The position numbers were made by a program, and so were the translations under genes. Under the pieces are notes generated by a model. It was not told the DNA's origin, did not search any database, and saw only the letters and a program-made list of their open reading frames with translations. Shown here in pieces: positions 1,029 through 38,018 of a stretch of 38,284 nucleotides of DNA. Numbering within the stretch: position 1 is the first letter of the stretch; the number at the start of each line of letters is the position of its first letter. This DNA comes from a virus: positions 1-38,284 of IMG/VR virus record IMGVR_UViG_3300002301_000005, one strand, 5' to 3'.

Positions 1029-1041
1029 TAAGGGGGTAATT

Positions 1042-1128: not shown

Positions 1129-1130
1129 TA

Positions 1131-1462: not shown

Positions 1463-1464
1463 AC

Positions 1465-2273: not shown

Positions 2274-2352
2274 TTCAATTTCAATCTACCATAAACACAA
2301 AAGTAAAAATTTTTTTGGGAACTTTGAAATCATTTTATGAAAGGTCAACCAC

Positions 2353-7131: not shown

Positions 7132-7490
7132 AACTCACCCGTTGTAAACTTCGCGTCGCCGCCAAGTATTAAAATTAATTCGACCCATTTCATCTGTGCT
7201 AGATCCCGTGGATTGTTGGGATTGAACTTCCAATCGGATCGTTTACATTCTCTTGAAATGAACTGACCGATCACACTGCCTACCATGTCTTGCGTAATGA
7301 GAACGGGCTTAATGCCGATCAAGTCACCTGACTTAACCTCTTCGTTGACGGCTTTAGAATCATTAGCTAATCCCCAGCGAACGAAAGAGCCACTCTCTAA
7401 CTTACCTGCGCCTACGTTGTTGCGCCATAAGCGCCAACCTAACTCTGAGGCTTGAAGTCTTATTTGATTTTGTATCTCGGCTTCGTTCAT
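7128..7490 (-). CDS. VRR-NUC domain nuclease
   Basis: GDLIGI ... ECK ... QMKW arrangement (D, ExK, QxxW) is typical of VRR-NUC. 120 aa. Confidence 0.7.
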   Translation of the reverse strand: MNEAEIQNQIRLQASELGWRLWRNNVGAGKLESGSFVRWGLANDSKAVNEEVKSGDLIGIKPVLITQDMVGSVIGQFISRECKRSDWKFNPNNPRDLAQMKWVELILILGGDAKFTTGEL

Positions 7491-7672
7491 TGCGCCATCC
7501 CCAAATCAGCAAAGGGGTTACATAAAGCTGGAATCTTTGCGTTAAACTCCCAACTTTCATAAGCGTCAATTATTGTCACCCCACTGCCTTGGCAAGTAAG
7601 CCAAGTTTTATTGTCAGTAACAGTAAGGCCACAAAACCATTGACCGTTAATAAATTTAATGCGCGGCTTCAT
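7487..7672 (-). CDS. Hypothetical protein, 61 aa
   Basis: ORF track. ATGA overlaps with both neighbours. Confidence 0.55.
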   Translation of the reverse strand: MKPRIKFINGQWFCGLTVTDNKTWLTCQGSGVTIIDAYESWEFNAKIPALCNPFADLGMAQ

Positions 7673-9261
7673 TTACTGATCCTCTCTAAAAGTTCTTCCG
7701 ACTCTTTGCGATTCAAAGTTTGAGCCGTCAATACATCAATTCCAAAGGTGTGATAGAACCTGCGCTGCGCAGTTGGTATATCTTCACCTTGTTCTGTTCT
7801 TGCACCACCCCAAATCGCCATTGCTTCTCGTAGAGCAACTTGGGCTTCCTGTTTTTCACGGTGGCGCTTCTTGATGGCACCCACAACTTCAGGGCCAGCA
7901 CCATAGGGAAAAGTCGGCTGAGCGTCTATTTCACCACGAATTTTAGCTAAAGCCTCTGGACTGAGTTCCATTAAGTCCCCATCTACCTCATCGGGAGTCG
8001 ATCTTCCAGCGGGCTCAGGCTCAAATCCACAGTAAGGGCAAGCCTTGTATATACGCTCATAGGCTGATATGCACTTAGGGCATGTCTTAATAGGGATTAC
8101 CCCATCCATAGTTCCCCTAGATCTGCGCTCCCTACGATCTAAACTCCATTCTCGATAAGCGTCGGGTAGCCCATGCCGGTGAACATTACCTACATGGTCA
8201 ATGATAATGGCCCGATCTTTACCCTCTTTAATGCGCAATGCGCGTCCAAATTGCTGACAATAAAGTGAATAAGATTGAGTGGGGCGAGCAAAAGAAACCA
8301 CCTCCAAAGCGGGCAGATCAAACCCTTCCCCAAATAAATCGACGTTTACAAGCTGCTTGATCTCACCGGCCGCAAACCTTCGGAGGATGGAGGCACGTAA
8401 GGTATCAGGGGTTTTAGCTGATACCACCTGGCTTTCAACACCTTTAGATCGATACGCTGTGGCTATCTCTTGAGCAGATTCGACATCCACGGCAAAAGTC
8501 ACACCTAACTTACCGCCAGCAATCTTAATGTAATGGGCGACCACATCACCAACAATATGGGACTCATGGACGGCTTTAGCGAGCTTTGGAGGGCTAAAGT
8601 CCCCTGAAGCTGACAAAGGTACTGCCGTCATGTCAATGTCTGAAGGTGGAGCGAATATACGGTATTCCGTAAGCCATCCTTCGTTTATCAATTGGCGCAT
8701 AGTGGGACCTTCAACCATAAAGTCAAAAAGCCCGTCTGCATGGCTACCAAGCCCATTCCCGTCTGCTCGGCAAGGTGTGGCTGTCACCCCTAAGCCCCTA
8801 GCGTTGGGGAACATAGCCATGGCCGCTCCCCACTTGTTTTTGCGTAAAACGTGATGCGCTTCATCAGTGACAGTAAGAGACACCTGTTTAAACCAAGGGT
8901 CAGTGACATCCATGCGGATCAAAGTATCGACCCCTGCCACAGCATGCTTATTAAGAGGGTCAACAAAGTTACGACCTAACTCGGTTAAATGAATCTGTGT
9001 GCAAGTCTTAGCGATGGTCTTAGGCCCAATAATGCGATGGCGAACCCCGTAACGAGCGAGCGCCAAGCTAATCTGAGTAACTAACTCTTGGCGGTGCGCA
9101 ATAGCCACACAGGCACCTTGCTCTTCAGACATGATGTTGCTAAATGTGACAGTTTTGCCACCCCCAGTAGGGATGACTAATAATGTATTCTTACTGCCCG
9201 AAGCCCACGCTGAGTAGATCTCAAATTTTGCCTGGGCTTGGAATGGCCTTAATTCGGTCAT
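7669..9261 (-). CDS. SF2 DEAD/DEAH-box helicase with a C-terminal zinc ribbon
   Basis: Motif I PTGGGKT, motif II DEAH, motif III TATP, motif VI QQFGRALR. CPKC...CPYC ribbon. Confidence 0.9.
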   Translation of the reverse strand: MTELRPFQAQAKFEIYSAWASGSKNTLLVIPTGGGKTVTFSNIMSEEQGACVAIAHRQELVTQISLALARYGVRHRIIGPKTIAKTCTQIHLTELGRNFVDPLNKHAVAGVDTLIRMDVTDPWFKQVSLTVTDEAHHVLRKNKWGAAMAMFPNARGLGVTATPCRADGNGLGSHADGLFDFMVEGPTMRQLINEGWLTEYRIFAPPSDIDMTAVPLSASGDFSPPKLAKAVHESHIVGDVVAHYIKIAGGKLGVTFAVDVESAQEIATAYRSKGVESQVVSAKTPDTLRASILRRFAAGEIKQLVNVDLFGEGFDLPALEVVSFARPTQSYSLYCQQFGRALRIKEGKDRAIIIDHVGNVHRHGLPDAYREWSLDRRERRSRGTMDGVIPIKTCPKCISAYERIYKACPYCGFEPEPAGRSTPDEVDGDLMELSPEALAKIRGEIDAQPTFPYGAGPEVVGAIKKRHREKQEAQVALREAMAIWGGARTEQGEDIPTAQRRFYHTFGIDVLTAQTLNRKESEELLERISK

Positions 9262-9282
9262 GAAAATATTTATTAAAAGTTA

Positions 9283-9311
9283 TTGACGATGTTGTCATTA
9301 TCGTTTATTCT
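9283..9311 (+). promoter_or_regulatory. Candidate sigma70 promoter for the + strand replication operon
   Basis: TTGACG (9283..9288), 17-nt spacer, TATTCT (9306..9311). A strong AAGGAG SD precedes the ATG at 9362. Confidence 0.45.
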
Positions 9312-9324
9312 GCATCCGTGTCAA
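9297..9324 (-). promoter_or_regulatory. Candidate sigma70 promoter for the - strand helicase/primase operon
   Basis: On the minus strand: TTGACA (9324..9319), 16-nt spacer, GATAAT (9302..9297). It overlaps the divergent + promoter. Confidence 0.5.
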
Positions 9325-9361
9325 GTAGTTTTGTAAATTAAATTTAACCAAAGGAGTAAAT

Positions 9362-10066
9362 ATGAGTACGTCTATAACCCTTACGAATATTGAAGAAATG
9401 AAGCATAGCGACGTTGTAATGGCGTTGGAATTTATTGCTAAGAAGATTGGCTTTGATCAGCCAAAGCAAGAAGCTGAACCTGATTCGAACACTACAACTG
9501 AAACTCAACCTGAGATCCCATCGTTTACTAACGCACCAGGCGCAGCCGGTATTGATGTTGATACGTCAGGTTTACCTTGGGATGGCCGTATTCATGCCAG
9601 CACTCGTAGCAAGACAGTTGATGGTAATTGGAAAATGCGCCGTGGTGTGGATGACGATATTGTTTCAGCCGTATTGAACGAACTGCGTCAAACAATGGGC
9701 TTGGCTCCAACTGAAGTAGTGCCACCGTCACCATTAACACCTCCACCGTCTCAAGTGTTTGCACAACCAGCAGCACAGGTGCCACCGCCCCCTTTTGCAC
9801 CTCCTGTCGCGCCCCCTGCTCCCCCAATGGCTACGTTGCCTACGGAGATCCCCCAGGTTGGTACTGCGACTGGTGCATCCCCTTCTGAGCAGATTACTTT
9901 TCCTAAGTTGATGCAGAAGATCACAGCGGCGTTTGCAGCTAAGACTTTAGACCAAGCAGCAATTGGCGCGGCAGTACAAGCAGCAGGTTTACCTTCATTA
10001 CCAATGTTGGCTTCACGCCCTGATTTAGTTCCAGTTGTGGCCACAGCTTTAGGATTAGCACTATGA
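9362..10066 (+). CDS. Hypothetical protein with an LPWDGRIH motif and a Pro/Ala-rich linker, 234 aa
   Basis: ORF track. AAGGAG SD. First gene of the operon. Function not recognised. Confidence 0.75.
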   Translation: MSTSITLTNIEEMKHSDVVMALEFIAKKIGFDQPKQEAEPDSNTTTETQPEIPSFTNAPGAAGIDVDTSGLPWDGRIHASTRSKTVDGNWKMRRGVDDDIVSAVLNELRQTMGLAPTEVVPPSPLTPPPSQVFAQPAAQVPPPPFAPPVAPPAPPMATLPTEIPQVGTATGASPSEQITFPKLMQKITAAFAAKTLDQAAIGAAVQAAGLPSLPMLASRPDLVPVVATALGLAL

Positions 10067-11160
10067 GCGTACACGCTATATTAGCCCCCAGCTCTGCATC
10101 ACGTCGTATGCAATGTCCTGGTTCACGGGTAATGGAAGCGACGTACCCACAGGCTGAGGATGACCCACGCGCATTGGAGGGCACTCTTGCTCACTTAGTA
10201 AACCAAGCGATATTTGGCAATAAGCCACTACCCGACGGCCATACTGAAGAAATGCTTGAGGGTGCTGATTTGTGGATGGACGTAATTACTAAAGTGCTTG
10301 CACGATCTGAGTCAGTTCAATTTGGCTTTGAGCAGTGGTTGACGATTTATTCGGTTCACTCTGAGTGCTCTGGTACACCTGACTTTTGGTCATACGATAA
10401 CGAGAACAAGATCATTGATGTTGTTGACTATAAGTTTGGTCATCGTTACGTTGATGTCTTTGAGAATTGGCAGTTACTTGAGTATGCAATCGGCGTGTGC
10501 GATCACATCAAGGTATTTCGCAATGATCTCAAGGTGATTCGCTTAACTATTGTGCAACCTCGTTGCTATCACCGTGAAGGCCCAGTTCGCACATGGGAGG
10601 TCACGCCCGATGATTTAGCCAAGTATATGACTCGCTTACAAAAGTCTGAGTCTGAATCAATGAAGCCTGATTGTCCTGTTCGCACTGGCTCTGAGTGCCG
10701 CGATTGTTCAGCTCGTCATGCGTGTACTAATTTACAGCGCGAGGCGTTTCATGAAGTTGAAATGAGTGTGGTCAATGCGCCGTTTGATTTGCCAGCCAAT
10801 GTGCAAAGCTGGGAGCTGCGTAAGATCAAGCGAGCAATTGATATTCTCAAAGCCCGTGAGAGTGGGCTTGAGAATGAAGTACTAGCCAAACTAAAACAAG
10901 GTACGCCGATTGCTGGATGGCGCACTGAGCAAGGTATGGGTAGAGAGAAGTGGAGCAAACCTATTGATGAAGTTTTAGCTTTAGGTCAGATGATGGGTGT
11001 TGACATTGCTAAACCCTCAGCTATTACTCCAAAGCAAGCGATCAAGGCTGGATTGTCAGCAGAGATCGTAAGTCAATACAGTGAAACCCCAAAGGGTGAG
11101 ATCAAGTTAGTTGAAGATGATTTGAACCGCGCCCGTTTAATTTTCAAGGATCAATCATGA
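10063..11160 (+). CDS. PD-(D/E)xK nuclease, DUF2800 or Cas4-like, with a 4-Cys cluster
   Basis: N-terminal SASRRMQCPGS. DVVDYKFG core. C-terminal CRDCSARHAC (CX2CX5C) as in Cas4 and AddB Fe-S nucleases. Confidence 0.75.
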   Translation: MSVHAILAPSSASRRMQCPGSRVMEATYPQAEDDPRALEGTLAHLVNQAIFGNKPLPDGHTEEMLEGADLWMDVITKVLARSESVQFGFEQWLTIYSVHSECSGTPDFWSYDNENKIIDVVDYKFGHRYVDVFENWQLLEYAIGVCDHIKVFRNDLKVIRLTIVQPRCYHREGPVRTWEVTPDDLAKYMTRLQKSESESMKPDCPVRTGSECRDCSARHACTNLQREAFHEVEMSVVNAPFDLPANVQSWELRKIKRAIDILKARESGLENEVLAKLKQGTPIAGWRTEQGMGREKWSKPIDEVLALGQMMGVDIAKPSAITPKQAIKAGLSAEIVSQYSETPKGEIKLVEDDLNRARLIFKDQS

Positions 11161-11363
11161 GCACTAAGCGAGAACGAATTGCAGAATTAGCGAAGCTAGA
11201 GTACGCAACCTTATCAACCATTAATGCTAATCAACAACGTAATGTTGGAGGTATGGATTATGACGAGCGTGAGCAGTTTCACGTAGAGCAAACCCTTTTG
11301 CGTTCGGATTTAATTGACATTCAACGCAAGATTCAAAACGAACTTAATTCAATCGAGGAATAA
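11157..11363 (+). CDS. Hypothetical protein, 68 aa
   Basis: ORF track. ATGA overlap with the upstream gene. Confidence 0.6.
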   Translation: MSTKRERIAELAKLEYATLSTINANQQRNVGGMDYDEREQFHVEQTLLRSDLIDIQRKIQNELNSIEE

Positions 11364-11368
11364 ATATC

Positions 11369-12202
11369 ATGGCAAGAACCAATTTCACCACTCCAGTTGG
11401 CCGCTTAGTAATGGGCTCTTTGTATAAGCCACAAACTACTGACGCTGACGGTAAACCATTAGTTGTTAAGTCTGGCCCTAATGCCGGTCAACCTAAAGTA
11501 ACTTATTTCTTTGCGTTAGCTATCCCTAAGAACCCTGGCGAGACTCATTGGTCTCAAACTACTTGGGGCGCAACGATTTATAAAGCTGGAGCTGAAGCGT
11601 TCCCACAGGCTTGCCAAGCACCATCTTTTGCATGGAAAGTTGTGGATGGCGACTCCACTATTCCTAACAAAAAAGGCATTGCCCCAATTACTCGCGAAGG
11701 TTATAAGGGCAACTGGGTAATCTCATTTTCTAGCGGGTTTGCACCAAAGATTTATAACAATGATGGTAGCCAAGCAATTGTTGAACCTGATGCAGTTAAG
11801 CTCGGTTATTTTGTTCAAGTCAATGCTGATGTGGATGGCAACGGCAGTAATCAAAACCCTGGCGTTTATATCAATCACAGCATGGTGGCGTTATCTGCCT
11901 ATGGCCCTGAGATTGTTGTTGGTGCCGATGCGTCTAGCGTAGGATTCGGTCAAGCCCCATTGCCAGCAGGCGCTACAACTACGCCACCAGCAGCGTTCAC
12001 ACCACCTGCTATGCCTGCACCAGCTTCAATTCCCACTCCTAACCCAGCGTTCTTGCAACCACCAGTGCCTGCTGCCCCAGCGGTACCAGCAGCACCAGCG
12101 CACGTAATGTTACCTCCTGCTAATGGTGCAAGCTATGAGTCCATGATTGCTGCCGGATGGACTGATGCGCTACTTGTTCAACATGGAATGATGCAGGGAT
12201 GA
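11369..12202 (+). CDS. DUF2815-like putative ssDNA-binding protein with a Pro/Ala-rich C-terminus
   Basis: N-terminal TPVGRLVMGSLYKPQ ... VTYFFALAIPK resembles the DUF2815 pattern. It sits in the canonical position between the DUF2800 nuclease and the polymerase. Confidence 0.55.
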   Translation: MARTNFTTPVGRLVMGSLYKPQTTDADGKPLVVKSGPNAGQPKVTYFFALAIPKNPGETHWSQTTWGATIYKAGAEAFPQACQAPSFAWKVVDGDSTIPNKKGIAPITREGYKGNWVISFSSGFAPKIYNNDGSQAIVEPDAVKLGYFVQVNADVDGNGSNQNPGVYINHSMVALSAYGPEIVVGADASSVGFGQAPLPAGATTTPPAAFTPPAMPAPASIPTPNPAFLQPPVPAAPAVPAAPAHVMLPPANGASYESMIAAGWTDALLVQHGMMQG

Positions 12203-13983
12203 TCCCAGTCCCACCAATATGGGTGTTTGACCTTGAGTGCTATCGGGATTATTTCTTGATAGCACTCAAGAATGTCTATTCGCGCCAAATTGAATCCTAC
12301 GAATTTTATCCAGGAATTGAACCTGACTATGAGCGTATTAAGACGAGTCTTACGACGAAACAACTTATTAGCTTTAACGGCATTAATTACGATATTCCTT
12401 TACTACGGCTTTTCTTTGCTAACAATGATAATGCGACTTTAAAGAAGGCTAGTGATGCGATTATTGTTGAGAATATGCGCCCTTGGGAATTAGAAACAAT
12501 GTACGGTGGCGCTGATTTTCACCCTGATCATATTGATCTTATTGAAGTGGCTCCAGGCATGGTGGGCTTGAAGCTCTATGGTGGCCGTATGCACTCACAC
12601 CGATTGCAAGACCTACCAATTGATCCAGCGGCAAATATCACACCCGCTGATCGCCCAATACTTAAAGATTACTGTATCAATGATTTGAATACAACGATCG
12701 ACATGTACTTTCAACTTAAGCCTCAAATTGATTTGCGTGTGGCAATGAGCGCTAAATACGATATTGATTTGCGATCTAAATCTGATGCACAAATTGCTGA
12801 AGCGGTGATTCGTCAAGAGGTTCAAAAGAAAGTTGGCCGTAAGATATATCGCCCTGATATTAGCCCCGATTACACATTTAAATATCGTATTCCTGAGTTT
12901 GTAAGTTTTACGGCACCTGGCATGCAAAAGGTACTGGAAATTATTAGAAATGCAACGTTTACCATCAATGAAAAAGGATCTGTTGAACTGCCTCAGATTT
13001 TTGAGTCTATGCGCATTTGCATTGGCTCTAGTACTTATACTATGGGAATCGGTGGTTTACATAGTAATGAGTCATGTAGCTCCCATGTCTCTAATGAGAA
13101 CGTATTTCTAAAAGATCGCGATGTAACGAGTTACTACCCGTCGATTATTTTGAATCAGAGTCTATACCCCGCACACATGGGCGAAGCCTTTTTAGAGGTG
13201 TATCAAGGTATTGTCTCTCAGCGCATTGAGGCTAAACGTACTGGTGACAAAGTAACTAATGAGGCCATGAAAATTATGATCAACGGATCTTTTGGTAAAT
13301 TTGGTAGCAAGTGGTCAGTTCTTTACTCGCCCGACTTGCTCATTCAAACCACTGTGACCGGCCAACTTGCGCTTTTGATGCTAATTGAGAATATTGAACT
13401 TGCAGGGTTTACTGTAGTGAGTGCCAATACTGATGGCATTGTGATTAAGGGCTATGAATCTAGAGTTGAAGATCTTAATGGTGTAATCTCATATTGGGAG
13501 GCAGTCACAGGGTTTAATACTGAGGAAACTGAATACCGCGCTCTTTATTCAAAAGACGTAAACAATTATGTTGCAATCAAACCTAGTGGTGAAGTCAAAT
13601 TAAAAGGGCTTTATGCTCCAGCAGGTATGCAAAAAAATGTCACTAATTCAATTTGCGTTGAAGCCGTGATTGAGTACTTACGATCGGGAACACCTGTACC
13701 AAGCACAATTATGGGATGTTCGGACGTGCGTAAATTTATTACAATTCGCCAAGTTAATGGTGGGGCTAAATACGATGATCAATATCTTGGTAAGGCTGTT
13801 CGTTGGTACTATCGAAAAGGTGAGGCTCGTTCAATCCGTTATGCAGCTAATAACAATAAAGTTGCTCGATCTGATGGGGCCTTTCCTTTAATGGAGCTAC
13901 CTCCTGCTCTACCGCAAGATGTCGATTACGATTGGTACATCAAGGAAGCACAATCTATTCTCAATGATGTGGGCTATGCTTGA
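12199..13983 (+). CDS. Family B DNA polymerase, 594 aa
   Basis: Exo I VFDLECY. Motif A DVTSYYPSIIL (DxxSLYPS). Motif B KIMINGSFGKFG (KxxxNSxYG). Motif C NTDGIVI (DTD-like). Confidence 0.8.
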   Translation: MIPVPPIWVFDLECYRDYFLIALKNVYSRQIESYEFYPGIEPDYERIKTSLTTKQLISFNGINYDIPLLRLFFANNDNATLKKASDAIIVENMRPWELETMYGGADFHPDHIDLIEVAPGMVGLKLYGGRMHSHRLQDLPIDPAANITPADRPILKDYCINDLNTTIDMYFQLKPQIDLRVAMSAKYDIDLRSKSDAQIAEAVIRQEVQKKVGRKIYRPDISPDYTFKYRIPEFVSFTAPGMQKVLEIIRNATFTINEKGSVELPQIFESMRICIGSSTYTMGIGGLHSNESCSSHVSNENVFLKDRDVTSYYPSIILNQSLYPAHMGEAFLEVYQGIVSQRIEAKRTGDKVTNEAMKIMINGSFGKFGSKWSVLYSPDLLIQTTVTGQLALLMLIENIELAGFTVVSANTDGIVIKGYESRVEDLNGVISYWEAVTGFNTEETEYRALYSKDVNNYVAIKPSGEVKLKGLYAPAGMQKNVTNSICVEAVIEYLRSGTPVPSTIMGCSDVRKFITIRQVNGGAKYDDQYLGKAVRWYYRKGEARSIRYAANNNKVARSDGAFPLMELPPALPQDVDYDWYIKEAQSILNDVGYA

Positions 13984-14974
13984 TATTTATCAAACTGATC
14001 ACATGGAATTAGCGGTGCGTGAAATGTATTTGCGTAATCATCGTTTTGTGGTCTATTGCACTCAAAAAAATAAACGCAAGATCCCATTAAGGTTAAACGA
14101 GGTCAAAGATATACCCATGGTATTGGCTCGAGAATGGGACCCGTTTTTTCAAAAGAGCGTTGATTTTTGGAAAGAAGAAGGGGGTATGCTTTTGTATCGT
14201 CATTTTCCAGTTAATCCGCAGAAAATTTCAGCTGAAGCGGCTTTATTTACTGAAGCGCCTTTATCTTGCATGGAATTTGAAATTCTTAGTTCTGAGATTG
14301 AGCGAGAAGCAGTTATTTATCGCCCACCAACTTGGAACTTACATGAGCACACTCTTGAGTATAAAAACCCAACTAGCAATGTGCACTACACGTTATTTAC
14401 CTTGATTCAATGCCTTATGGGGCGCGAGCTTCCACCTAGACTTGAAGCCGCTTTAGATTACTCAGGTTTTAAAGCCAGAGATAAAGTGGCAGTATTTGAG
14501 GGGAGGGAAGTCGAGGCAATCACAGGTATTGATGACCGTCAATTACGCACGATTCTCAATGGGCGAGGGTTACATAAAGTTTATAATCGGTACCACTGTT
14601 ACACACCTATTATTGAGCCTGAAGATCCCGACCTACTGTACTTTTACAACATGCTTTTGGCCACACCAGCAATGCCTAATAATGAGCGCTATTTGCGAAT
14701 GGATTTGTTTCCTGGACAAGTGCGCCTACCTAGTCAAAATCGATTTATGAGCCGATTAGTTCGCGAAAACTACATCAAGCGCAATCCCTATATTTATGTC
14801 ATTCGCACTGGCTATAAACCTTTGGACTACCCTGTGATTGATGCAATTGCCAACGCTAGGCGCGGTGAATGGTTCCGTATGCGAAACCTTATTGATCAAG
14901 CACCTGAATATCCACTAGTTCAGTGCTTTGAGGATGAAACTCAACTTGAGCAGTCTGAATCCGAACTGACTTAA
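13976..14974 (+). CDS. Orphan protein, 332 aa (start moved to the ATG at 13976, overlapping the polymerase stop)
   Basis: Long ORF. ATGCTTGA overlap with the polymerase stop. No recognised motif. Confidence 0.65.
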   Translation: MLDIYQTDHMELAVREMYLRNHRFVVYCTQKNKRKIPLRLNEVKDIPMVLAREWDPFFQKSVDFWKEEGGMLLYRHFPVNPQKISAEAALFTEAPLSCMEFEILSSEIEREAVIYRPPTWNLHEHTLEYKNPTSNVHYTLFTLIQCLMGRELPPRLEAALDYSGFKARDKVAVFEGREVEAITGIDDRQLRTILNGRGLHKVYNRYHCYTPIIEPEDPDLLYFYNMLLATPAMPNNERYLRMDLFPGQVRLPSQNRFMSRLVRENYIKRNPYIYVIRTGYKPLDYPVIDAIANARRGEWFRMRNLIDQAPEYPLVQCFEDETQLEQSESELT

Positions 14975-15419
14975 TACGCGGGGCACTTTGTTGATAGAGC
15001 TGATTTAGTTCTTGAAGTGTGGCCATTTGGCTAGTATCAGCTTGCTTTTGCGGTGCGCTACCCATAAGGGCAATTGCCGCCTTTAGTTGGACTTCTTTAC
15101 CTGCCGCGCTACTTGCGGACTCCATTGCAAGCCCGTGAATTACCTCAAGGGCCTCAAGGTGATAAGCGCGAGTCAATCGCTCTAGTTCATCTGAGAACTG
15201 CTCGTTGCTCATCTTACGATACTCAGGATCTTGCTTAACTTTGGCTATGGCGGCCACAAATCCTTGAAGCGTATCGGAAGCGCGAATGTAACCGTCTAGT
15301 TCCCTAGCGGTGACACCCAAATAGCAAGAAGATAAGAATAGATCACCCTTAGCTTGAGTCAGAGCAGCTTTAATCGTATCTTCAGTGATTAACCCATCGC
15401 GGAGCAATTCCCTAGCCAT
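14889..15419 (-). CDS. HTH-containing protein, 176 aa; small terminase or regulator candidate
   Basis: N-terminal LSSCYLGVTARELDGYI is HTH-like, followed by a helical C-terminus. Last gene of the late operon. Function uncertain. Confidence 0.6.
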   Translation of the reverse strand: MARELLRDGLITEDTIKAALTQAKGDLFLSSCYLGVTARELDGYIRASDTLQGFVAAIAKVKQDPEYRKMSNEQFSDELERLTRAYHLEALEVIHGLAMESASSAAGKEVQLKAAIALMGSAPQKQADTSQMATLQELNQLYQQSAPRIKSVRIQTAQVEFHPQSTELVDIQVLDQ

Positions 15420-16769
15420 TTAGAACTCCAAGCCTTTTGCGTAGCCCATACGGTGCAATTCAGGTAATTGTTTTTTCATTCTACCCGCGCCAATATCAAG
15501 GCGATAAAACGGGTTATTTGGAATCTTGATTTTTTTAATTGCGTTGTAAGCAGTGCGACGAGCGGCGGTAATGTTATCGCCAGTACCAGTAACAACAAGG
15601 GTATAGTCCCCACAAGTTACCAACCCTGGTAAATCCACAACTTTATCGCCAACCATTGTGGGCGCGGTGCCAATCATAACCTCTGATAAATGGACTTTTC
15701 CTAAATAATCTTCGGCTCCACGGATCGGAATACCGCAAAGATCCTTATTGGTAATCTTGGAATAAGGAAAGTCTGGAAGAGCCATCAAAATGCTCACACA
15801 AACTTCGCCGTCAATTGCTTCAATCGTGTCTTTACCGTTGACTAAATCAAGTTGCCATTGGATTGGATCTTCGTTTTTGATGTGAGCGGTCACATTATGC
15901 TTGGTTGGCCAACCGTCACGCATGGTCCATTCCATTGGCCAAGGACCATCTTTATCGATGATGCAATTGTTGTCAATATAGCCAACGTAACCCAGTTTGG
16001 CGAGTGTGTCCCCGATTGGCAATAATACCTGCTCAGCCAATTTAGAGCGCTTGGTCATACGGCTAAGCGTACCCATTTCACCTGTGGCCACACCTAAATC
16101 GCCGTCCATGAGCTTCTTGTATTCCCAGTTCTCATAGAACCATTTAGACCAGCCCCCAGGGCCGAACCAACCACCCACAGCCATTTCAATACCGTACTTA
16201 CGTTCTTGGAGGATAAATCCGTCTTTCTTAGCCGCTGCCCGTAGGTCATCGCGTTGCCCCCAGCGGCCAAGCATGTAAATTAAATCGGCTGGATCTGAAG
16301 CAACATAGGATAGCGCTTTATTAGCGTCCCCTGAAGGTTTAGATACCAAGAACTCAGGGTTTTTCTTAACAAACGCTATAGCGTCGTTGTAATCATGAAA
16401 AGCCTTGGATGACATGATGGGAATACCGGCTTTAGCCATTGCCTTTTGACCAATATCACGATCGGTCTCCAACTTAGCGGCTTCAGCCGAAGGAGCAAGA
16501 ATTGGATAACCTAATTGGCGGTAAGGCTCCAACATATCAAGCCAGCGAGTATTGTCTGGAAGATAAATCAGGTCAGCCCAATCCATCCATTTTTTCTTAA
16601 TCTCATTAAAATCATCGATTTTTTCAACCATTCCTTTTCCAGATAAGCGGGGAGTACCGTCTTTTCGTGGAGCGTCGTACCATTTAACGTCCCATCCGGC
16701 GTTTTGAGCTCTAAGGGCCATATCGAGGCAGTTAGAGGCGGGATCGATTAATAGTAGTCTTTTGCTCAT
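15420..16769 (-). CDS. Diverged PurD-like (phosphoribosylamine-glycine ligase family) ATP-grasp enzyme
   Basis: DGDLGVATGEMG corresponds to the PurD signature DGDTGPNTGGMG. EWTMRDGWP corresponds to EFNxRFGDP. PurD-like length (449 aa) and N-terminal fold pattern. Confidence 0.7.
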   Translation of the reverse strand: MSKRLLLIDPASNCLDMALRAQNAGWDVKWYDAPRKDGTPRLSGKGMVEKIDDFNEIKKKWMDWADLIYLPDNTRWLDMLEPYRQLGYPILAPSAEAAKLETDRDIGQKAMAKAGIPIMSSKAFHDYNDAIAFVKKNPEFLVSKPSGDANKALSYVASDPADLIYMLGRWGQRDDLRAAAKKDGFILQERKYGIEMAVGGWFGPGGWSKWFYENWEYKKLMDGDLGVATGEMGTLSRMTKRSKLAEQVLLPIGDTLAKLGYVGYIDNNCIIDKDGPWPMEWTMRDGWPTKHNVTAHIKNEDPIQWQLDLVNGKDTIEAIDGEVCVSILMALPDFPYSKITNKDLCGIPIRGAEDYLGKVHLSEVMIGTAPTMVGDKVVDLPGLVTCGDYTLVVTGTGDNITAARRTAYNAIKKIKIPNNPFYRLDIGAGRMKKQLPELHRMGYAKGLEF

Positions 16770-16774
16770 GATTC

Positions 16775-18505
16775 TTATTGTGGTGGGGGTGGTTGATTAT
16801 TTCTTTGATCTTGCTGCATGATTTGATTCAACATTGCTGGGGTAATTCCTTGAACACTAACACTACTTTGAGGCACTTTTGGTAAATTGGCAAAACGAGA
16901 TTGATAAGCGTCTGATGTTAATAAACGAGGTATTCCACCACGCCCAACCAATTCGGCTGCCGCAAGCCCTGGATGTCCAGCCGCGGCGGCACCACCAGCA
17001 ACTAAAAAATCCCAAGCATTAAATGTAGGTTGCGCACCAATTCGAGCGACGTCTTTATTGGCAGTCGGAAAAGCTTGTGTGAACTTAGCGGCTGTTTCCA
17101 TGCCACCAGATAAAGGTTTACCTGAAGCCAAACGGCGGGCTAAACGGGCACCCGATATATCGCCAGTTGAGGCATTAAGGGCATATTCAACATCATAAGT
17201 CTTGGCAATTTGCTGACGGGCTTTTTGAAAAGCGTCTAAAAGTTCAGGTTTACCAATACGAGTCAAATTTTGACCAATCAAATCTTCCATCGATTGAGCC
17301 ACTTCGTATTGAAAACGGCCTAACTCTTGATTCTTGTACGAGTCACTACGAATATTGACTGATGATTGATTTCTCAAACGTTTAACGATTCCCAAAGAAC
17401 CTTCAGGGGTAAATGAATTTTTTTGAAAATCTTTTAACACGGAATTAATTGATTTTGCATCCACACTGGATGGGAACTCACCACTAAGCCCTGTGAATCT
17501 AGCTTGAATCTGATTTAAACGATCTTTGAACTCAGGTGTAGAGACAATTCCTAATTGTGGGTAATCTTTAAGCATTAATCCTATTTTAGATTTTCCATCT
17601 CCGTAATCGGCTTTAATTACTGACTCATAGTCTTTATACGCATCGCGGCGCACTTTGTCTAAGGCACTAGTCGAAATTGGTTCGTTTTCAATCAAACCAA
17701 GGTCTTGTCGAATAAGATTGTTACGAATCTCTTGGTTTTTTTCTGCCAAAGCCGTAGCCACTTTACCTTTACCTGGAATACTCTCAAGCACAGTATTTGG
17801 AAAACTTGGATTGACATCGGACGGAGCGACTACAAATCCAGCTGATTTAGCGTCTTCAAGCGTTTTAGCTTTAATTGCATCTTGTGGACGAGGTACTTCA
17901 TAAGTCTTACCTTTAAATCCGAATGGGATGAGCCCTCCGGCTACTCCAGCAATTGCTTGACCAGTTGGACCCACTCCCATTTCAGAGGCACCTTGACTTG
18001 AGGTACCTCCAGTGAATCCACTAGCAGCTTGAGCTATTGGGCGAGCAGTTAAATTACTAGCGAGCTCAGGCGCACGTTGCGCCATTCCTGGCACTGACCC
18101 TAATCCCATTGAACCAATAGCCGCCCCAGTACCTTGAACTCCTGCGCTCATTACACGTTCAGCAGAAGTCTGCGGTACTGGAAGATCAGCTTTGTTAGCC
18201 ACATACGCACCAGCACCAGGATTCTGCATGCCTACCGCTTGGCTGATTTTTTGAGCAGCATTTGGGAATCCCAACAACCCAGCAGCTCCAGATACAGCTT
18301 CACCCACGGCTCTTACGGGAGCAGTAAAGCCTTGCTCAAGTCCGGTTAATGCTGCACGACTAGCTATTCCGGCTTCTCGACCCAGTGTGGCTTCAGGGGC
18401 TTTAACTTCAGCTTTAAGCGGTGCTCCACTATCTACTGAAGTAGCAGTTGATAAATCAAACCCGCTAGATGACGCGGGTTTGGCAGTAGCTAGATCAAAA
18501 GCCAT
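16775..18505 (-). CDS. Large Gly/Ala-rich virion protein, internal or ejection protein candidate, 576 aa
   Basis: Low-complexity Gly/Ala-rich N-terminal half. Position in a run of three large genes downstream of the lysis cassette. Confidence 0.5.
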   Translation of the reverse strand: MAFDLATAKPASSSGFDLSTATSVDSGAPLKAEVKAPEATLGREAGIASRAALTGLEQGFTAPVRAVGEAVSGAAGLLGFPNAAQKISQAVGMQNPGAGAYVANKADLPVPQTSAERVMSAGVQGTGAAIGSMGLGSVPGMAQRAPELASNLTARPIAQAASGFTGGTSSQGASEMGVGPTGQAIAGVAGGLIPFGFKGKTYEVPRPQDAIKAKTLEDAKSAGFVVAPSDVNPSFPNTVLESIPGKGKVATALAEKNQEIRNNLIRQDLGLIENEPISTSALDKVRRDAYKDYESVIKADYGDGKSKIGLMLKDYPQLGIVSTPEFKDRLNQIQARFTGLSGEFPSSVDAKSINSVLKDFQKNSFTPEGSLGIVKRLRNQSSVNIRSDSYKNQELGRFQYEVAQSMEDLIGQNLTRIGKPELLDAFQKARQQIAKTYDVEYALNASTGDISGARLARRLASGKPLSGGMETAAKFTQAFPTANKDVARIGAQPTFNAWDFLVAGGAAAAGHPGLAAAELVGRGGIPRLLTSDAYQSRFANLPKVPQSSVSVQGITPAMLNQIMQQDQRNNQPPPPQ

Positions 18506-19965
18506 TATTTGACTTCCTCAAATTGCTTACCATCTGGCGAAACATAAGCCTTATTACCTTTTGCGTCCGTGTGTAAAGTCCACCCCTTAGCGTTGGTATT
18601 TGAAATATTTGATTCGTTTGATCCACCACGCAGTGCTGATTGAACCCCACCCATGATCTCTTTACGAGTCATGTCGTTTGCTTGTTTGGCATTAGCAATA
18701 ATTCGCTTCATACCAGCAATTGAGGCTTGCATTTGAGCTGGAGTTTGAGCACTTTTATACTGTTCTTTGGCGCTGTTTACGTCTTGAACATTAAGGGTAC
18801 CTGGATTACCAGTAATAATTCCCTCAAATTCATTAAATACTGTCTGAGCCGCCTGATCGAGCTTACGAACATTGGCCATCGCTTCTTTGCCACCAGCACC
18901 TTGACGAATTGCCGATAATTGCAAATTAGCTAAAGCTGGGATGTTAGATGGACTTAAAGCCTTCATCGCATCTTCCATTACTGGAATCTCTAATGACAAT
19001 TGATTTTCAGCGCGAGTCAAGTTTTGTGTACGAACTTCAAAACTACGCTTAGCCATCACACGCGATTTAATATCTGCTCCAGCGGAGATCAAATCTTCTG
19101 TGGACATATTATTTTCTTTGGCCAACTTAGCAATATCACTCATTACTGCTGAATATTCACCTGTGCGTTTTGGAGGGCTAACATTATTGATTAAGTATGA
19201 ATAAGTTTCAGCTCGAATACCGTCTGGTGTTGCCCCTTTAGGTAATCCAGGAGTACCGCCACCGCCGCCCGTACCTCCAGCGCCACCGCCTTTTTTACCG
19301 CGATAATCAACTAAAGATTGAGTGTTTTGTTGCTGCAAGCCAAGTTTAGCCACATCCAGTTGCTGCTTTAGCATTAGGGCTTCTTGCTTGTTTTGAGCGT
19401 TCATGATCGGCGCGTATTGGTTGATCACATCCATCCAATATTCTTGCGGTACATTTTGTTGACGTAATGCACTGACAATACCGCCAACCGTAATTTCACC
19501 ATTACCTTGTTGCGGTTGTTGAGCAGGAGCTTGTGGCTGAGCGCCACCAACTGAAGGTGGGGCCATCATTTGTGGCTGACTAGGTTGTGGCGCAGCCTGA
19601 CGTTGTGCGGCAGCACCTTGAACTGTTTGATAAGGTGGGACCGCTGGGGCAGGAGCCTGCTGAGCACCTTGATCCATTCCCATTGGAACTTGTGGCTGAC
19701 CACCAGGAGGAGCCATTGGCTGAGAAGCCTGTCCTGGCATTGGTGGCTGCGGTCCTTGACCCATCGGTTGACTCACTGGGGGCGGGGCAAATAATTGACC
19801 TGCCACACCTGATCCGTACTGAGCCAATGCTAACTCTTTAGCTTTAGCAACGCGTTGCTGCTCAAGGTCATATTGCTGCTTTTTTAGAGCGGCATCTTGC
19901 AATTGAGACGCTTGAAAGTTATTTATACCTTGGGCGGTACCACCAAGTACGCTTCCTAGATACAT
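18505..19965 (-). CDS. Gln/Pro-rich virion protein, internal or ejection protein candidate, 486 aa
   Basis: Long Q/P/A-rich tract, coiled-coil-like middle region, poly-Gly stretch. TAATG coupling to the downstream gene. Confidence 0.5.
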   Translation of the reverse strand: MYLGSVLGGTAQGINNFQASQLQDAALKKQQYDLEQQRVAKAKELALAQYGSGVAGQLFAPPPVSQPMGQGPQPPMPGQASQPMAPPGGQPQVPMGMDQGAQQAPAPAVPPYQTVQGAAAQRQAAPQPSQPQMMAPPSVGGAQPQAPAQQPQQGNGEITVGGIVSALRQQNVPQEYWMDVINQYAPIMNAQNKQEALMLKQQLDVAKLGLQQQNTQSLVDYRGKKGGGAGGTGGGGGTPGLPKGATPDGIRAETYSYLINNVSPPKRTGEYSAVMSDIAKLAKENNMSTEDLISAGADIKSRVMAKRSFEVRTQNLTRAENQLSLEIPVMEDAMKALSPSNIPALANLQLSAIRQGAGGKEAMANVRKLDQAAQTVFNEFEGIITGNPGTLNVQDVNSAKEQYKSAQTPAQMQASIAGMKRIIANAKQANDMTRKEIMGGVQSALRGGSNESNISNTNAKGWTLHTDAKGNKAYVSPDGKQFEEVK

Positions 19966-19974: not shown

Positions 19975-21078
19975 TTAAAACGACATATAGTCTGTGGAAT
20001 ATTGCCCGCCAGGGGAGGACGCACCACCAAGATAATTCACATTAAATGAATTACCAGCTGTGGGTGTAAAGTTACCACCCACCGATGACCCTGACCATAA
20101 ATTTGTTGAATTTATAGGTTGGTTATAATATTGCGCAGCTACATTACCTAACATTCCACCCATTTGTGCCCCAGCTGCAGCACCAGCAGCTTGCTGTTGA
20201 GCGTTAAATTGTTGTTGAGTTTGCTGGGCGCCCACACCGGCGTTCATATATGGAATAGCTTGATTTTGAACACCGCCGTATAAGTTTGCCAATTGACCCA
20301 TATTAGTCTGATAAGAGGCAGCATTAGTTGCAGGCATCCCCGCCACATATTGTTGGGCTGTGGTTGGAACTTGACCGGCTTGCTGTAAATAACTTGGTAC
20401 TTGCCCTTGAGCTGACAATTGTGCAGCTAAGTCCGCACCCATTAATGTGCCTTGCTGAGCGCCAGCTTGACTACCCGCCGCTTGAGCCTGAATACCTTGT
20501 GTTTGGCGAGCCAACTGTTGATTTTGCCAATCAATATTGAAGTTGCTCATTGCTTGGTTGTATTCGCTGCCGCCCACAGGGGAAACACCAAGGCCGCGCA
20601 TGGCTTGCCCCGCATTGACCTGATCAGATAACTGCTGCTGAGTTCGATCGTATAAAGCGTTTTGTGGGTCAAAAGCGGTTTGCGCTACTTGATTGGCATT
20701 TCCGTAAAGACTTTGTTGTTGACCTTGCGCTGTTTGAGCAGCGCCGCCGTACATATTAGCTTCTTGCCCTGCTAATCCAGCTAAACCAGTGTAAGCCTGA
20801 CCAGCTTGCTGAGCACCTTGTAGGTATTGACTGTAATCAATACCTTGTTGGGCGTTAAGCGATTGCTGATATAACGGTTGAACTGTGGAACCAACTTGAT
20901 TGGCCACATTTTGTTCATTACCAAAGGCTTGTTGCCAGGCAGTGTCGGCGGCTTGTAATCCTTGAGGTGTGTACGCTCCTGATACACCATTGTAGGCACC
21001 TTGATTAGAGCTAGAGCCCCCTAAGAGGCCACCTACAATGCTGCTTCCACCAATGATGGCTGCTGGGATCCATGCCAT
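19975..21078 (-). CDS. Gln/Gly/Ala-rich virion protein with a Gly-rich hydrophobic N-terminus, 367 aa
   Basis: N-terminus MAWIPAAIIGGSSIVGGLLGG. Q-rich low-complexity body. Confidence 0.5.
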   Translation of the reverse strand: MAWIPAAIIGGSSIVGGLLGGSSSNQGAYNGVSGAYTPQGLQAADTAWQQAFGNEQNVANQVGSTVQPLYQQSLNAQQGIDYSQYLQGAQQAGQAYTGLAGLAGQEANMYGGAAQTAQGQQQSLYGNANQVAQTAFDPQNALYDRTQQQLSDQVNAGQAMRGLGVSPVGGSEYNQAMSNFNIDWQNQQLARQTQGIQAQAAGSQAGAQQGTLMGADLAAQLSAQGQVPSYLQQAGQVPTTAQQYVAGMPATNAASYQTNMGQLANLYGGVQNQAIPYMNAGVGAQQTQQQFNAQQQAAGAAAGAQMGGMLGNVAAQYYNQPINSTNLWSGSSVGGNFTPTAGNSFNVNYLGGASSPGGQYSTDYMSF

Positions 21079-21080: not shown

Positions 21081-21404
21081 TTACACCTCTTCTTCAGGGC
21101 TATTAATACGAATAAGAACTTCGTCTATTTTAGACACATCCTTTTCAGGTATCGAGTGAACACAGTACCAAATAGCGTCAGTTAAAGCAAAAACCCTGTG
21201 ATTTTTACCTTTTTCCACTTCAATACAGGCTGGAGCCATATAAACTTTGGTCTCGTCATCCACAGTAACTTCCACAGTTCCTTGAGCCACAATCGATAAA
21301 TGGCTGAACTTATGCTTATGCTGCATAAGGGCTTGACCCGCTGGAATGTGGGTCTCTTTAGCGTAAAGGTTATCTGAGAAGTGATGTGTAATGGCTGAGA
21401 TCAT
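21081..21404 (-). CDS. Small cupin-fold protein, 107 aa
   Basis: AGQALMQHKHKFSHLSIVAQG fits the cupin motif G(x)5HxH(x)3-4E/H(x)6G. Confidence 0.55.
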   Translation of the reverse strand: MISAITHHFSDNLYAKETHIPAGQALMQHKHKFSHLSIVAQGTVEVTVDDETKVYMAPACIEVEKGKNHRVFALTDAIWYCVHSIPEKDVSKIDEVLIRINSPEEEV

Positions 21405-21859
21405 TTTGGCCAGGAGCTTTCTATTGTCTGAAGGTCTAGTTCGGTTTTGTCAGCATGCTCTGCCAACGTTGCATATTCACTTGTGCACTCTTGGACCACT
21501 GTTGAGAGGGCTGTGATTCGGTTCTGGAGGGCTTCTCTGGAATTGTTGGACAAGCTGCCGTTGTAGGCATTGAGCTGATCCCGCAACCCGCTAACAACAA
21601 GGCGGTTATAGGAAGTAGTCTTATCAAGATTGATTTTACTTTGCGCGAGATCATATAGTGCCTTGTCTAATTTACCTTGAAGTTCTGTGGATTTAGCTTT
21701 TGCTGCAATTAAGTCTTTATTAAGTTGAACGGCATCTTCCGCTACTCGCTTTTGATACCCAACGTTCTCAAAATGATTAGCTAAAGCCCAACCGCCTCCA
21801 ATAAGGATAGCCACACCCAAAACAATACCAATAATCTTAATTTGAAGCGAGGTTAGCAT
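21401..21859 (-). CDS. Rz-like i-spanin (N-terminal TM helix plus coiled coil)
   Basis: ATG at 21859 with a GGGGA SD. TM helix IIGIVLGVAILIGGGWAL. Immediately downstream of the endolysin. Contains an embedded lipoprotein ORF. Confidence 0.7.
   Translation of the reverse strand: MLTSLQIKIIGIVLGVAILIGGGWALANHFENVGYQKRVAEDAVQLNKDLIAAKAKSTELQGKLDKALYDLAQSKINLDKTTSYNRLVVSGLRDQLNAYNGSLSNNSREALQNRITALSTVVQECTSEYATLAEHADKTELDLQTIESSWPK
21436..21654 (-). CDS. Rz1-like o-spanin lipoprotein, entirely embedded out of frame within the i-spanin gene
   Basis: Signal sequence plus lipobox LLAG|C (MISRKVKSILIRLLPITALLLAGC). Short Pro-rich mature part. Confidence 0.7.
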   Translation of the reverse strand: MISRKVKSILIRLLPITALLLAGCGISSMPTTAACPTIPEKPSRTESQPSQQWSKSAQVNMQRWQSMLTKPN

Positions 21860-22322
21860 TTTGATCCCCAATACAGGTATGGTACTCTTGCTGACGTCGT
21901 TTTGTAAGCCCTGCTAGGGGTTTGCCCTTAAATTGATCCCATTTTAAAATTTCACGGCAAGCACCAGCGTAATCTCCAGCATTTAAACGTCTCACCAATG
22001 TTGATCCACAAAATGCGCTAGGGCCAATGTTGTAAGCCAAATCGATATAAGCGTCGTATTCATTTTGAGCCAACGGGACGTGAACACACGCATTGACTGC
22101 TGATTCATCTTTTTGAACGTCTCTAAGAACTCGCTCAAGTGCTTTAGGTGGCGTGATTCTGTCCCCATTATGAACATCAGGCCCAGTTGACCCAAATCCG
22201 TAAGTTGGCGCGTCGCCTTTAATTGGAGCACTAGCGACAGGGGTATAGCTCTCATTAAGCGCAATTGTTACTAGCCCAACTGCTGTAAGGGATAAAGCGG
22301 CGGTTTTAGTACGCTCAAACAT
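21837..22322 (-). CDS. GH24 lysozyme-type endolysin with an N-terminal SAR-like anchor
   Basis: NEYDAYIDLAYNIGPSAF...GLTKRRQQE is a GH24 pattern. The weakly hydrophobic N-terminus TAALSLTAVGLVTIAL resembles a signal-arrest-release domain. Confidence 0.8.
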   Translation of the reverse strand: MFERTKTAALSLTAVGLVTIALNESYTPVASAPIKGDAPTYGFGSTGPDVHNGDRITPPKALERVLRDVQKDESAVNACVHVPLAQNEYDAYIDLAYNIGPSAFCGSTLVRRLNAGDYAGACREILKWDQFKGKPLAGLTKRRQQEYHTCIGDQNANLASN

Positions 22323-38011: not shown

Positions 38012-38018
38012 AAGGGTC

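Follow-up and report, generated by a model that had tools for sequence, protein, structure and literature searches.

The closest described relative of the enzyme analyzed here, by sequence as well as by structure, is the glycinamide ribonucleotide synthetase PurD (EC 6.3.4.13; TIGR00877; PDB 1GSO, 2YW2, 2YS6, 2QK4). The enzyme is a 449-residue PurD-like ATP-grasp carboxylate-amine ligase encoded in the IMG/VR virus record IMGVR_UViG_3300002301_000005; the whole stretch of 38,284 nucleotides that we analyzed, positions 1 to 38,284 of that record, is called the window below. Both proteins have the same N-B-A-C architecture, and the window ligase has kept from PurD the ATP-binding Lys, the Mg-ligand Glu, the acyl-phosphate-stabilizing Arg equivalent to R290, Lys216, and the R-x-D-I-G sequence of the C domain. 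It differs from PurD in its low identity (~20%), a profile score of about one third of the equivalog cutoff, the lack of GGREH, the exchanges Asn288 to Thr, Asp293 to Trp/Tyr, Glu295 to Thr, Gly229 to Glu, and Lys105 to Arg, a shorter and different B-loop, and an additional C-terminal tail. The genomic context differs as well: the ligase family has not been seen in purine operons, and its genes lie in a virion operon or stand as lone cellular genes. Judged by its sequence, the window protein is a member of a distinct, uncharacterised sister family of PurD and not PurD itself, and calling it a "purine auxiliary gene" is probably a mistake. We read it, with a probability of roughly 0.5, as an amide ligase that is active, is made late, is probably associated with the virion, and acts on or together with internal virion proteins.

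Two further kinds of described system invite comparison. RimK, tubulin tyrosine ligase (TTL), and LysX/LysW direct ATP-grasp chemistry to a peptide carboxylate at a protein C-terminus. A likeness of the window ligase to these enzymes would fit the loss of its alpha-amine site, its translational coupling, and the Gln/Glu-biased tail of the protein encoded upstream, as functional speculation and not as homology; the RimK/TTL-like enzymes form a different ATP-grasp clade from the PurD-like ligase. The locus also resembles those of MuF/portal-linked packaged effectors ("polyvalent protein" cargo and T4 Alt-type injected enzymes), in that an enzyme gene lies amid late virion genes and one homologue is a portal/Phage_Mu_F fusion (PMC5512222). 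Unlike polyvalent proteins, the window ligase is a stand-alone enzyme with a single (ligase) domain, a PurD-like ATP-grasp is not among the domains of PMC5512222, and packaging is putative.

Viral purD/GART genes are already listed as auxiliary metabolic genes (AMGs) in catalogues that carry the same automated annotation and read them as purine biosynthesis (PMC11360552, PMC11097641), a reading against which the residue analysis presented here argues for the present family, and one survey reported a higher abundance of "phosphoribosylamine-glycine ligase" in viruses than in cells (PMC11360552). If the catalogued genes belong to the ligase family, the purine-AMG inference in virome surveys is probably wrong. 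Such "purD" calls (PMC11360552, PMC11097641) need a residue check at the GGREH, Asn288, Asp293, and Glu295 sites.

Predicted fold and family membership

In profile searches, the 449-residue protein matched Pfam GARS_A (E = 3.5e-9, 37.2 bits, above the gathering score of 27) and GARS_C (E = 6.9e-7, 29.9 bits, below the gathering score of 34.8), and no match to GARS_N was found. The TIGR00877 purD model aligned with residues 29-428 (E = 2.5e-29), with a score of 102.3 bits against an equivalog cutoff of 288, i.e., below the level that identifies a PurD equivalog. All PDB sequence matches at E ≤ 1e-5 were PurD chains, with 2yw2 at the top (4e-15). An AlphaFold (AF2) model built from 85 homologues reached a predicted local distance difference test score (pLDDT) of 96, and its top 15 solved structures in Foldseek were likewise all PurD (E 2e-30 to 2e-23, template modelling (TM) score 0.67-0.81, with 0.68-0.78 for matches at E ~1e-30); the next fold class, comprising PurK, biotin carboxylase, PurT, and YwfE, followed from 1e-18. 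According to this model, the protein is a full-length, four-domain N-B-A-C PurD-fold ATP-grasp protein. The residues that define the ATP-grasp superfamily, namely the ATP-binding Lys, the Mg-binding Glu, and the acyl-phosphate-stabilizing Arg, are all present. A close viral structural relative was not found in BFVD, where the best match had E = 2.5e-10 and a TM score of 0.49. A profile built from the cell-type clade of the family (see below) matched nothing but PurD in the PDB, so no family member has a solved structure.

The family is large. More than 1,300 homologues were found in a 90%-cluster database, many of them on contigs of 37-41 kb, and 147 representatives matched at E < 1e-30 in a 50%-representative library. 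The subclade to which the window protein belongs occurs on at least 537 IMG/VR contigs, mostly of 38-46 kb. Copies from the Burkholderia cepacia complex are 61% identical to the window ligase and are annotated as [quoted passage not shown], while the Joint Genome Institute (JGI) name for close homologues is "phosphoribosylamine--glycine ligase". No cultured phage with the gene was found; the sole INPHARED record with a homologue of the ligase's own family is the metagenomic MW202796.1 (44% identity). A second subclade, ~30% identical to the window protein, was recovered with the ligase domain of the homologue P0281 and comprises proteins from metagenome-assembled genomes of candidate phyla radiation (CPR) bacteria, DPANN archaea, and Planctomycetes. 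It is present in at least 589 GTDB species-representative genomes, mainly Patescibacteria and DPANN, whose proteins are 58-71% identical to a Nealsonbacteria query protein in bacterial and archaeal genomes alike. These cell-type PurD-like proteins (loci L013-L098) are routinely annotated as purD. We found no paper on a phage PurD-like virion gene or on the ligase family. As far as is known, phages, CPR bacteria, and DPANN archaea obtain their nucleotides from hosts, and identification of the substrate of a large conserved family concentrated in these groups would fill a real gap.

An earlier note on this DNA, made from the letters alone, had described the two adjoining reading frames of 449 and 176 residues and a resemblance of the former to PurD along its whole length, and had proposed inspection of an AlphaFold model. 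Both reading frames are present (Table 1), and the profile, PDB, and Foldseek results bear out the resemblance. The note's picture of a "lone, divergent" ligase has to be given up in view of a very large, well-conserved family with cellular members.

Active-site residues and predicted chemistry

Residues were compared in an alignment with E. coli PurD from NC_000913, and E. coli numbering is used for PurD sites. In human GAR synthetase, Arg13 and Glu14 of the GGREH motif belong to the sulfate/phosphoribosylamine (PRA) site, and glycine is bound by Asp217, Arg292, Asp295, and Glu297 in human numbering (PMC2978367); Asp212, Arg287, and Glu292 are the glycine-binding equivalents in a thermophile enzyme (PMC8880213). 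In the window protein, the GGREH position reads IDPASNCLD, within a segment that is variable in the phage clade and rich in Leu, Ile, and Gly in cell-type relatives. Of the Mg ligands, Glu286 is kept as E280 and Asn288 is replaced by Thr282; Thr occupies this position in all 118 cell-type members and in 95% of the phage-type members. Among the glycine-binding sites, Arg290 is kept as R284, Asp214 is replaced by Glu216, Asp293 by Trp287, and Glu295 by Thr289, with Tyr/Trp and Thr as the family consensus at the latter two. Glu231, a family-specific residue, stands for PurD Gly229, the ATP-binding Lys144 is conserved in 99% of the family, and Arg423 of the YRLDIG motif is invariant, cell-type relatives ending in ...WGYL.

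Conservation of this signature extends across the family. E101, R104, K144, E195, E216, K218, G226, G233, E280, R284, G286, P288, R423, and D425 are each conserved in at least 90% of the members, and K144, E195, K218, E280, and R284 in at least 96%. All 118 cell-type proteins lack GGREH and have Arg105, Glu214, Thr288, and Arg290, and most also carry Glu229 (117/118), Tyr293 (115/118), and Thr295 (105/118). Since the substitutions are fixed across the family, they do not represent random decay. Weaker tblastn matches on human-faecal contigs deposited as "Bacteriophage sp." (MT835525.1 and MT836023.1; loci L209 and L210) proved to be canonical PurD with all motifs (GSGGREHA, GLALGKG, TGGMG, RFGDPE). 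As these proteins keep every motif, the differences seen in the window family are not alignment noise.

The same conservation bears on the idea of an enzymatically dead PurD fold that has been reused as a structural or internal virion protein. Although the location in the structural block, the loss of the Mg-ligand Asn, and the diverged B-loop would suit such a protein, the ATP-grasp catalytic residues are 90-100% conserved in phage and cellular members at ~30% overall identity, and the Thr that replaces the Asn is itself invariant. Moreover, inteins (Hint/LAGLIDADG) interrupt 18 of the 150 best representatives (P0042, P0048, P0106, P0161-P0293, with two inteins in P0283) at two sites only, one just before Thr229 in the TGEMG loop and one at Arg284/Asp285 in the E-W-T-x-R loop. 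Inteins thus target the two catalytic loops, and their placement fits these loops as the conserved functional core. We regard a dead fold as extremely unlikely, and the ligase is predicted from its residue conservation to be catalytically competent.

By analogy with PurD, ATP and Mg would turn a carboxylate into an acyl-phosphate, from which the acyl group would be passed to an amine to form an amide. The substrates should differ from those of PurD, the proposed PRA phosphate/ribose site being replaced by variable or hydrophobic residues. Because Asp293 and Glu295, which hold the amino group of glycine in PurD, have become Trp/Tyr and Thr, the acyl donor probably has no free alpha-amine; likewise, with the PRA phosphate/ribose site missing, a sugar phosphate is unlikely as the amine acceptor. 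The alignment agrees with the correspondences that had been drawn in the earlier note for DGDLGVATGEMG, EWTMRDGWP, and KPSGDANKAL and with the exchange of Asn for Thr, and it reveals that the glycine and PRA pocket residues are not all retained. The suggestion of glycine as acyl donor has become unlikely because the residues that bind its amine are gone. The doubt expressed in the note that this is a routine purine AMG is reinforced by the loss of GGREH, the exchanges of Asp293 for Trp and Glu295 for Thr, and a score far below the purD cutoff.

An ordinary AMG would be a diverged, functional PurD that makes glycinamide ribonucleotide and boosts purine supply during infection. The full-length PurD fold, PurD as the top match in every library, and the retention of Arg284, Lys218, and Glu280 speak for it, as does the annotation of such genes as purD/GART AMGs in viral metagenome studies (PMC11360552, PMC11097641). 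Nevertheless, we consider this role very unlikely. The score reaches 102 of the 288 bits of the cutoff, and GGREH, Asn288, Asp293, and Glu295 are all replaced, the replacements being conserved. In agreement with the earlier note, no other purine gene was found among the scanned window ORFs (open reading frames) of at least 90 residues, nor does one lie beside the 79 cellular homologues. The family is concentrated in CPR and DPANN, which generally do without de novo purine synthesis. True PurD genes on putative phage contigs look canonical. Finally, PRA has a half-life of 5 s at 37 °C and its direct transfer from PurF to PurD has been suggested (PMC2978367), which makes a stand-alone PurD less plausible.

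Place of the ligase gene in the phage late operon

The window represents a complete phage genome of ~38.2 kb with a single long minus-strand late operon, in which the large terminase gene (TerL) is followed by portal, major capsid protein, tail fibre, endolysin, spanin, and cupin genes, with further genes on either side of the capsid gene, and then by genes for three low-complexity proteins, the ligase, and the 176-residue protein. The same gene order was found in the Manatee Spring phage and in Burkholderia prophages, so the placement at the far end of the virion genes, as described in the earlier note, is real and conserved in relatives. Among 109 viral loci with a homologue, 66 have the ligase as the final gene on its strand and 30 have exactly one gene after it, and purine genes are not among the recurrent neighbours. 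When loci were anchored on the protein at position -3 relative to the ligase, the ligase was present in 64 of the 65 with enough downstream sequence, which makes it a core and far better conserved member of the block. Position -3 holds a ~330-residue protein in 58 loci (40% identity between window and Burkholderia), position -2 a protein of ~430-490 residues, and position -1 proteins of 570-1500 residues that fall into many mutually unalignable clusters without Pfam domains; the -1 proteins of Burkholderia and the window cannot be aligned, while their ligases are 61% identical. No family matches were found for the 367-, 486-, and 576-residue proteins of the window in Pfam, PHROGs, and NCBIfam scans. 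In size and composition, we take them to be similar to podovirus ejection proteins, and the designation "ejection-type" given to them before is a putative one, drawn from position, size, and composition.

Upstream of this trio, position -4 is occupied by a GNAT-like gene in 37 loci, by a small cupin in the window and nine other loci, and by an Asp/Asn beta-hydroxylase together with the same cupin in Burkholderia prophages, which suggests a slot for a protein-modifying enzyme before the three low-complexity proteins. The 107-residue cupin ORF of the window carries the PHROGs label "short tail fibre / tail fibre adhesin" and is 40% identical (E = 4e-23) to the small cupin of Burkholderia. Downstream, the ATG of the ligase gene lies 5 nt after the stop codon of the 576-residue ORF and has no Shine-Dalgarno sequence, and 23 of the 59 unique junctions between the -1 gene and the ligase gene are ATGA overlaps. 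A scan of 14500-19000 revealed no promoter-like or terminator-like sites beyond chance level, so the genes of the ligase region are most simply part of the late transcript. Translation of the ligase would accordingly follow immediately on that of the largest of the three fast-evolving low-complexity proteins. The ligase may be packaged with the internal proteins and delivered into the next host, or it may modify the internal proteins during assembly. A conserved enzyme fixed behind ejection proteins in a podophage-like lineage is a candidate packaged effector or virion-protein modifier.

One homologue points in the same direction. P0281, encoded on a 65-kb contig, is a single ORF of 1,236 residues that immediately follows the large terminase gene and joins a portal, the ligase (GARS_A/C), and a C-terminal Phage_Mu_F domain; its ligase domain retains the signature of the family (TGETGT, EWT..RPGYP, YRTDIG). 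MuF/portal fusions have been read as a sign of packaged, injected cargo (PMC5512222), and the fusion is suggestive, and only suggestive, of head association of the ligase. Two other candidates for fusions were discounted: the C-terminus of P0180, which combines a low-complexity N-terminus with the ligase and had been considered as Rosetta-stone evidence, looks frameshifted, and the extra N-terminus of P0364 (659 residues) looks like a miscalled start. Among the targets that had been envisaged in the earlier note, i.e., a nucleotide, a DNA base, a cell-wall amine, or a virion protein, the virion protein alone gains support, all of it indirect.

A DNA base or nucleotide would be the target if the enzyme took part in hypermodification, in which an aminated base of the phage DNA would receive an acid or a carboxylated base an amine. 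PurD-type chemistry targets a ribosylamine, and the DNA polymerase of the window is 48-50% identical to those of Alteromonas phage R7M and of Seurat-, CAjan-, and related E. coli siphophages (Seuratvirus/Nonagvirus type). E. coli siphophages of the Seuratvirus/Nonagvirus type have 7-deazaguanine-modified DNA. In 10 related phages (e.g., locus L139, 2669-3025), an opposite-strand 118-residue DUF6378 protein, absent from the window, adjoins the ligase and has a weak, sub-threshold match to an amino acid:DNA transferase family (E = 0.0055). On the other hand, genes of the deazaguanine pathway, DpdA/Que, hydroxymethyluracil (hmU) synthase or kinase, and aGPT-Pplase were not found in the window, the ligase gene is placed within the virion block away from replication and nucleotide genes, and cellular relatives occur outside DNA-modification contexts. 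We therefore hold hypermodification to be very unlikely.

Candidate substrates and cellular context

If the ligase acts on internal proteins, the favoured candidate for the acyl donor would be a peptide C-terminal carboxylate, for example that of the upstream protein. In loci L099-L208, the C-terminal residue of the -1 protein is Gln or Glu in 35 of 59 unique tails, compared to 148 of 1,263 other proteins from the same loci (Fisher p = 5e-17). The tail reads ...NNQPPPPQ in the window, ...NEGQ in the Manatee Spring phage, and ...QRPPTP in Burkholderia prophages. A [YF]GG sequence within the last nine residues was seen in 9 of the 59 tails and in 9 of the 1,263 others, these latter nine being the same kind of large protein. 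We considered whether the YGG tail is a by-product of a GGAGG Shine-Dalgarno sequence and rejected this, as the glycine codons vary (GGC/GGT/GGG/GGA) and a Shine-Dalgarno-like string is present in 18 of 87 unique upstream regions. In view of the loss of the alpha-amine site, the translational coupling, and the tail bias at position -1 taken together, a peptide C-terminus is a plausible candidate acyl donor. In its most specific form, this hypothesis would have the packaged or co-assembled ligase amidate or ligate the C-terminal carboxylate of the co-translated -1 protein, a kind of virion-protein modification not described before, or act on a host target once injected, with the same chemistry serving as a peptide or protein C-terminal ligase in CPR and DPANN. 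In this detailed form we consider it unlikely.

Purine genes were not found near the ligase homologue in 79 cellular loci, and no neighbour is dominant. The commonest is a SET-domain protein within a few genes (18/79), and a DUF2156/LPG_synthase_C-like protein lies near the homologue in 10 of the 79 loci, often alongside SET. The other recurrent neighbours are housekeeping genes (SecA, LepA, HPF, MurJ, MurB, YceG), and saccharopine-dehydrogenase-like neighbours were seen in 4 of the 79 loci. Ad hoc, a pyruvoyl arginine decarboxylase was found to adjoin the Nealsonbacteria copy and an Orn/Arg decarboxylase to lie near an archaeal copy. A polyamine link was rejected as a general context, since the census of the 79 genomes yielded no arginine decarboxylase and four saccharopine-dehydrogenase-like neighbours, and it is retained as a minor rival.

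According to the main rival reading, the protein would be a late-expressed, unpackaged small-molecule amide ligase that conjugates polyamines or other amines of the cell with a carboxylic acid, with the same chemistry in its CPR and DPANN relatives; it could adjust the polyamine pool, for example, or supply a metabolite that assembly or lysis requires. The cell-type relatives carry the full signature in cellular, non-phage contexts, and some of them adjoin a pyruvoyl arginine decarboxylase, an Orn/Arg decarboxylase, or a saccharopine/carboxyspermidine-dehydrogenase-like gene. The GNAT-like gene at position -4 in 37 related phage loci and a possible HAD-like extension in two homologues could be read in the same way. 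This extension of ~100 residues at the C-terminus of P0291 and P0292 (loci L011 and L012) contains a DxDxT-like motif (GFDLDKTL/GFDFHGTL) that was seen by eye; neither Pfam (E up to 5) nor a PDB sequence search supported a HAD phosphatase. Polyamine-related genes are uncommon as neighbours (4 of 79 loci and the two ad hoc finds). The commonest neighbour, the SET-domain protein, is of a protein methyltransferase type. A free small-molecule enzyme leaves the strict position behind ejection-like proteins and the portal-MuF fusion unexplained. We regard this alternative as possible, but doubtful.

Several observations weigh against a virion-associated ligase acting on or with internal proteins, the reading that we prefer. 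The portal-MuF fusion is the sole case among the 150 best representatives and occurs on three contigs, and the endolysin and spanin genes share the late operon, so that a late position is no proof of packaging. Regarding the peptide C-terminus, the Burkholderia -1 proteins end in Pro, ATGA overlaps explain part of the Gln/Glu bias in the final codon, and this bias could be inherited from a common ancestor rather than linked to the ligase. The putative HAD extension would point to a phosphorylated small substrate. Finally, because the CPR, DPANN, and Planctomycetes relatives sit among housekeeping genes, the ancestral function is cellular, unrelated to the virion as well as to purine synthesis, and could be small-molecule metabolism; the polyamine enzymes among a few cellular neighbours belong to the same line of argument.

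Downstream protein and genome organization

The 176-residue ORF starts at the base after the ligase TAA (...TTC TAA ATG GCT...), with a GGAG 8 nt upstream, as expected from the abutting arrangement noted before. Its product has 38 detectable homologues and no Pfam domain, and shares 52% identity with its positional counterpart in Burkholderia prophages; the protein that the Manatee Spring phage has in this position is unrelated. Homologues occur in 29 of the 109 related viral loci and are missing in distant relatives, which does not support the assumption of a fixed partner of the ligase. The AF2 model is all-helical with a mean pLDDT of 65 and begins with a helix-turn-helix (HTH)-like three-helix unit (helices 13-22, 27-34, and 38-47; pLDDT about 80). 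The earlier designation as an HTH protein is putative: the N-terminus of this low-scoring model is HTH-like, no HTH family match was found in Pfam, and the HTH and small terminase (TerS) neighbours in Foldseek were insignificant, none being below E = 0.035. We take the protein to be lineage-specific and helical, possibly DNA-binding, and not an obligate partner of the ligase.

As no TerS candidate was found upstream of TerL, the 176-residue ORF is possibly the missing small terminase, for which we see roughly one chance in three. The terminase signal is weak (phrog_2538, E = 0.0066 for the window protein; weak TerS matches in 4 of 34 homologues), and support for TerS was found neither in Pfam and NCBIfam nor when a profile was run against the PDB. 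Weak or negative results also came from Foldseek on BFVD and from an hhalign comparison with the TerS candidate of the Manatee Spring phage, and the ORF lies ~20 kb from TerL at the opposite end of the operon rather than adjacent to it.

Table 1 Features of the window, ordered by position, with strand and the remark or basis recorded for each.
Feature	Position	Strand	Remark or basis
Primase	4493-6814		
Helicase	7669-9261		
Exonuclease	10063-11160		
gp2.5-like single-stranded DNA-binding protein (SSB)	11369-12202		
DNA polymerase	12199-13983	+	
All-helical protein, 176 residues, abutting the ligase gene	14889..15419	-	Optional neighbour
PurD-like ATP-grasp carboxylate-amine ligase, 449 residues	15420..16769	-	Fold, family, residue signature
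C-domain YRLDIG motif and family-specific C-terminal tail L..GY, absent from E. coli PurD	15441..15506	-	Alignment
EWTMRDGWP (residues 280-288), aligned with E. coli EFNCRFGDP	15906..15932	-	Alignment
DGDLGVATGEMG loop (residues 222-233), aligned with E. coli DKDTGPNTGGMG	16071..16106	-	Alignment
ATP-binding Lys144 and diverged B-loop, KPSGDANKAL = PurD KADGLAAGKGV	16311..16340	-	Alignment
N-terminal segment IDPASNCLDMAL (residues 8-19) at the PurD GNGGREHALAW position	16713..16748	-	Alignment; proposed PRA-site Arg/Glu/His absent
Gly/Ala-rich protein, 576 residues, position -1, end ...NNQPPPPQ	16775..18505	-	Putative internal/ejection protein
Pro/Gln/Gly-rich protein, 486 residues, position -2	18505..19965	-	Putative internal/ejection protein
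Gln/Gly-rich protein, 367 residues, position -3	19975..21078	-	Most widely conserved of the three low-complexity proteins
Small cupin, 107 residues, position -4 to the ligase	21081..21404	-	
Spanin	21401-21871	-	
Endolysin	21837-22322	-	
Tail fibre	22790-23776	-	
Major capsid protein	27582-28997	-	
Portal	33858-36020	-	
Large terminase (TerL)	36020-38146	-	

The early and replication genes occupy roughly 650-14974 and meet the late operon at its distal end, where a 351-residue ORF (+) and the 176-residue ORF (-) converge with an 86-nt overlap of their 3' ends (14889-14974). No terminator-like hairpin was detected between the two convergent transcription units. In Burkholderia prophages, a homologue of the 351-residue protein (E = 7e-9) is encoded at the corresponding site and likewise in convergent orientation. 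Bases 1-65 of the window recur exactly at 38220-38284, and this 65-nt direct repeat of the ends indicates either a circularly assembled complete genome of ~38,219 bp or short direct terminal repeats.

Two further repeats were observed among the late genes. Exact 25-nt direct repeats (TTGATGACTACAAGCACCCATGCAA) at 38034-38058 and 38063-38087, 29 nt apart, lie just 5' of the likely true start of TerL; the GTG at 38146 that is listed as its start probably makes the ORF too long. Within a 265-residue ORF (29015-29812) just before the capsid gene, a unit of 18-24 nt is repeated about five times, imperfectly and in tandem (29618-29740, minus strand), and judged by its position this ORF may encode a scaffold-type protein.

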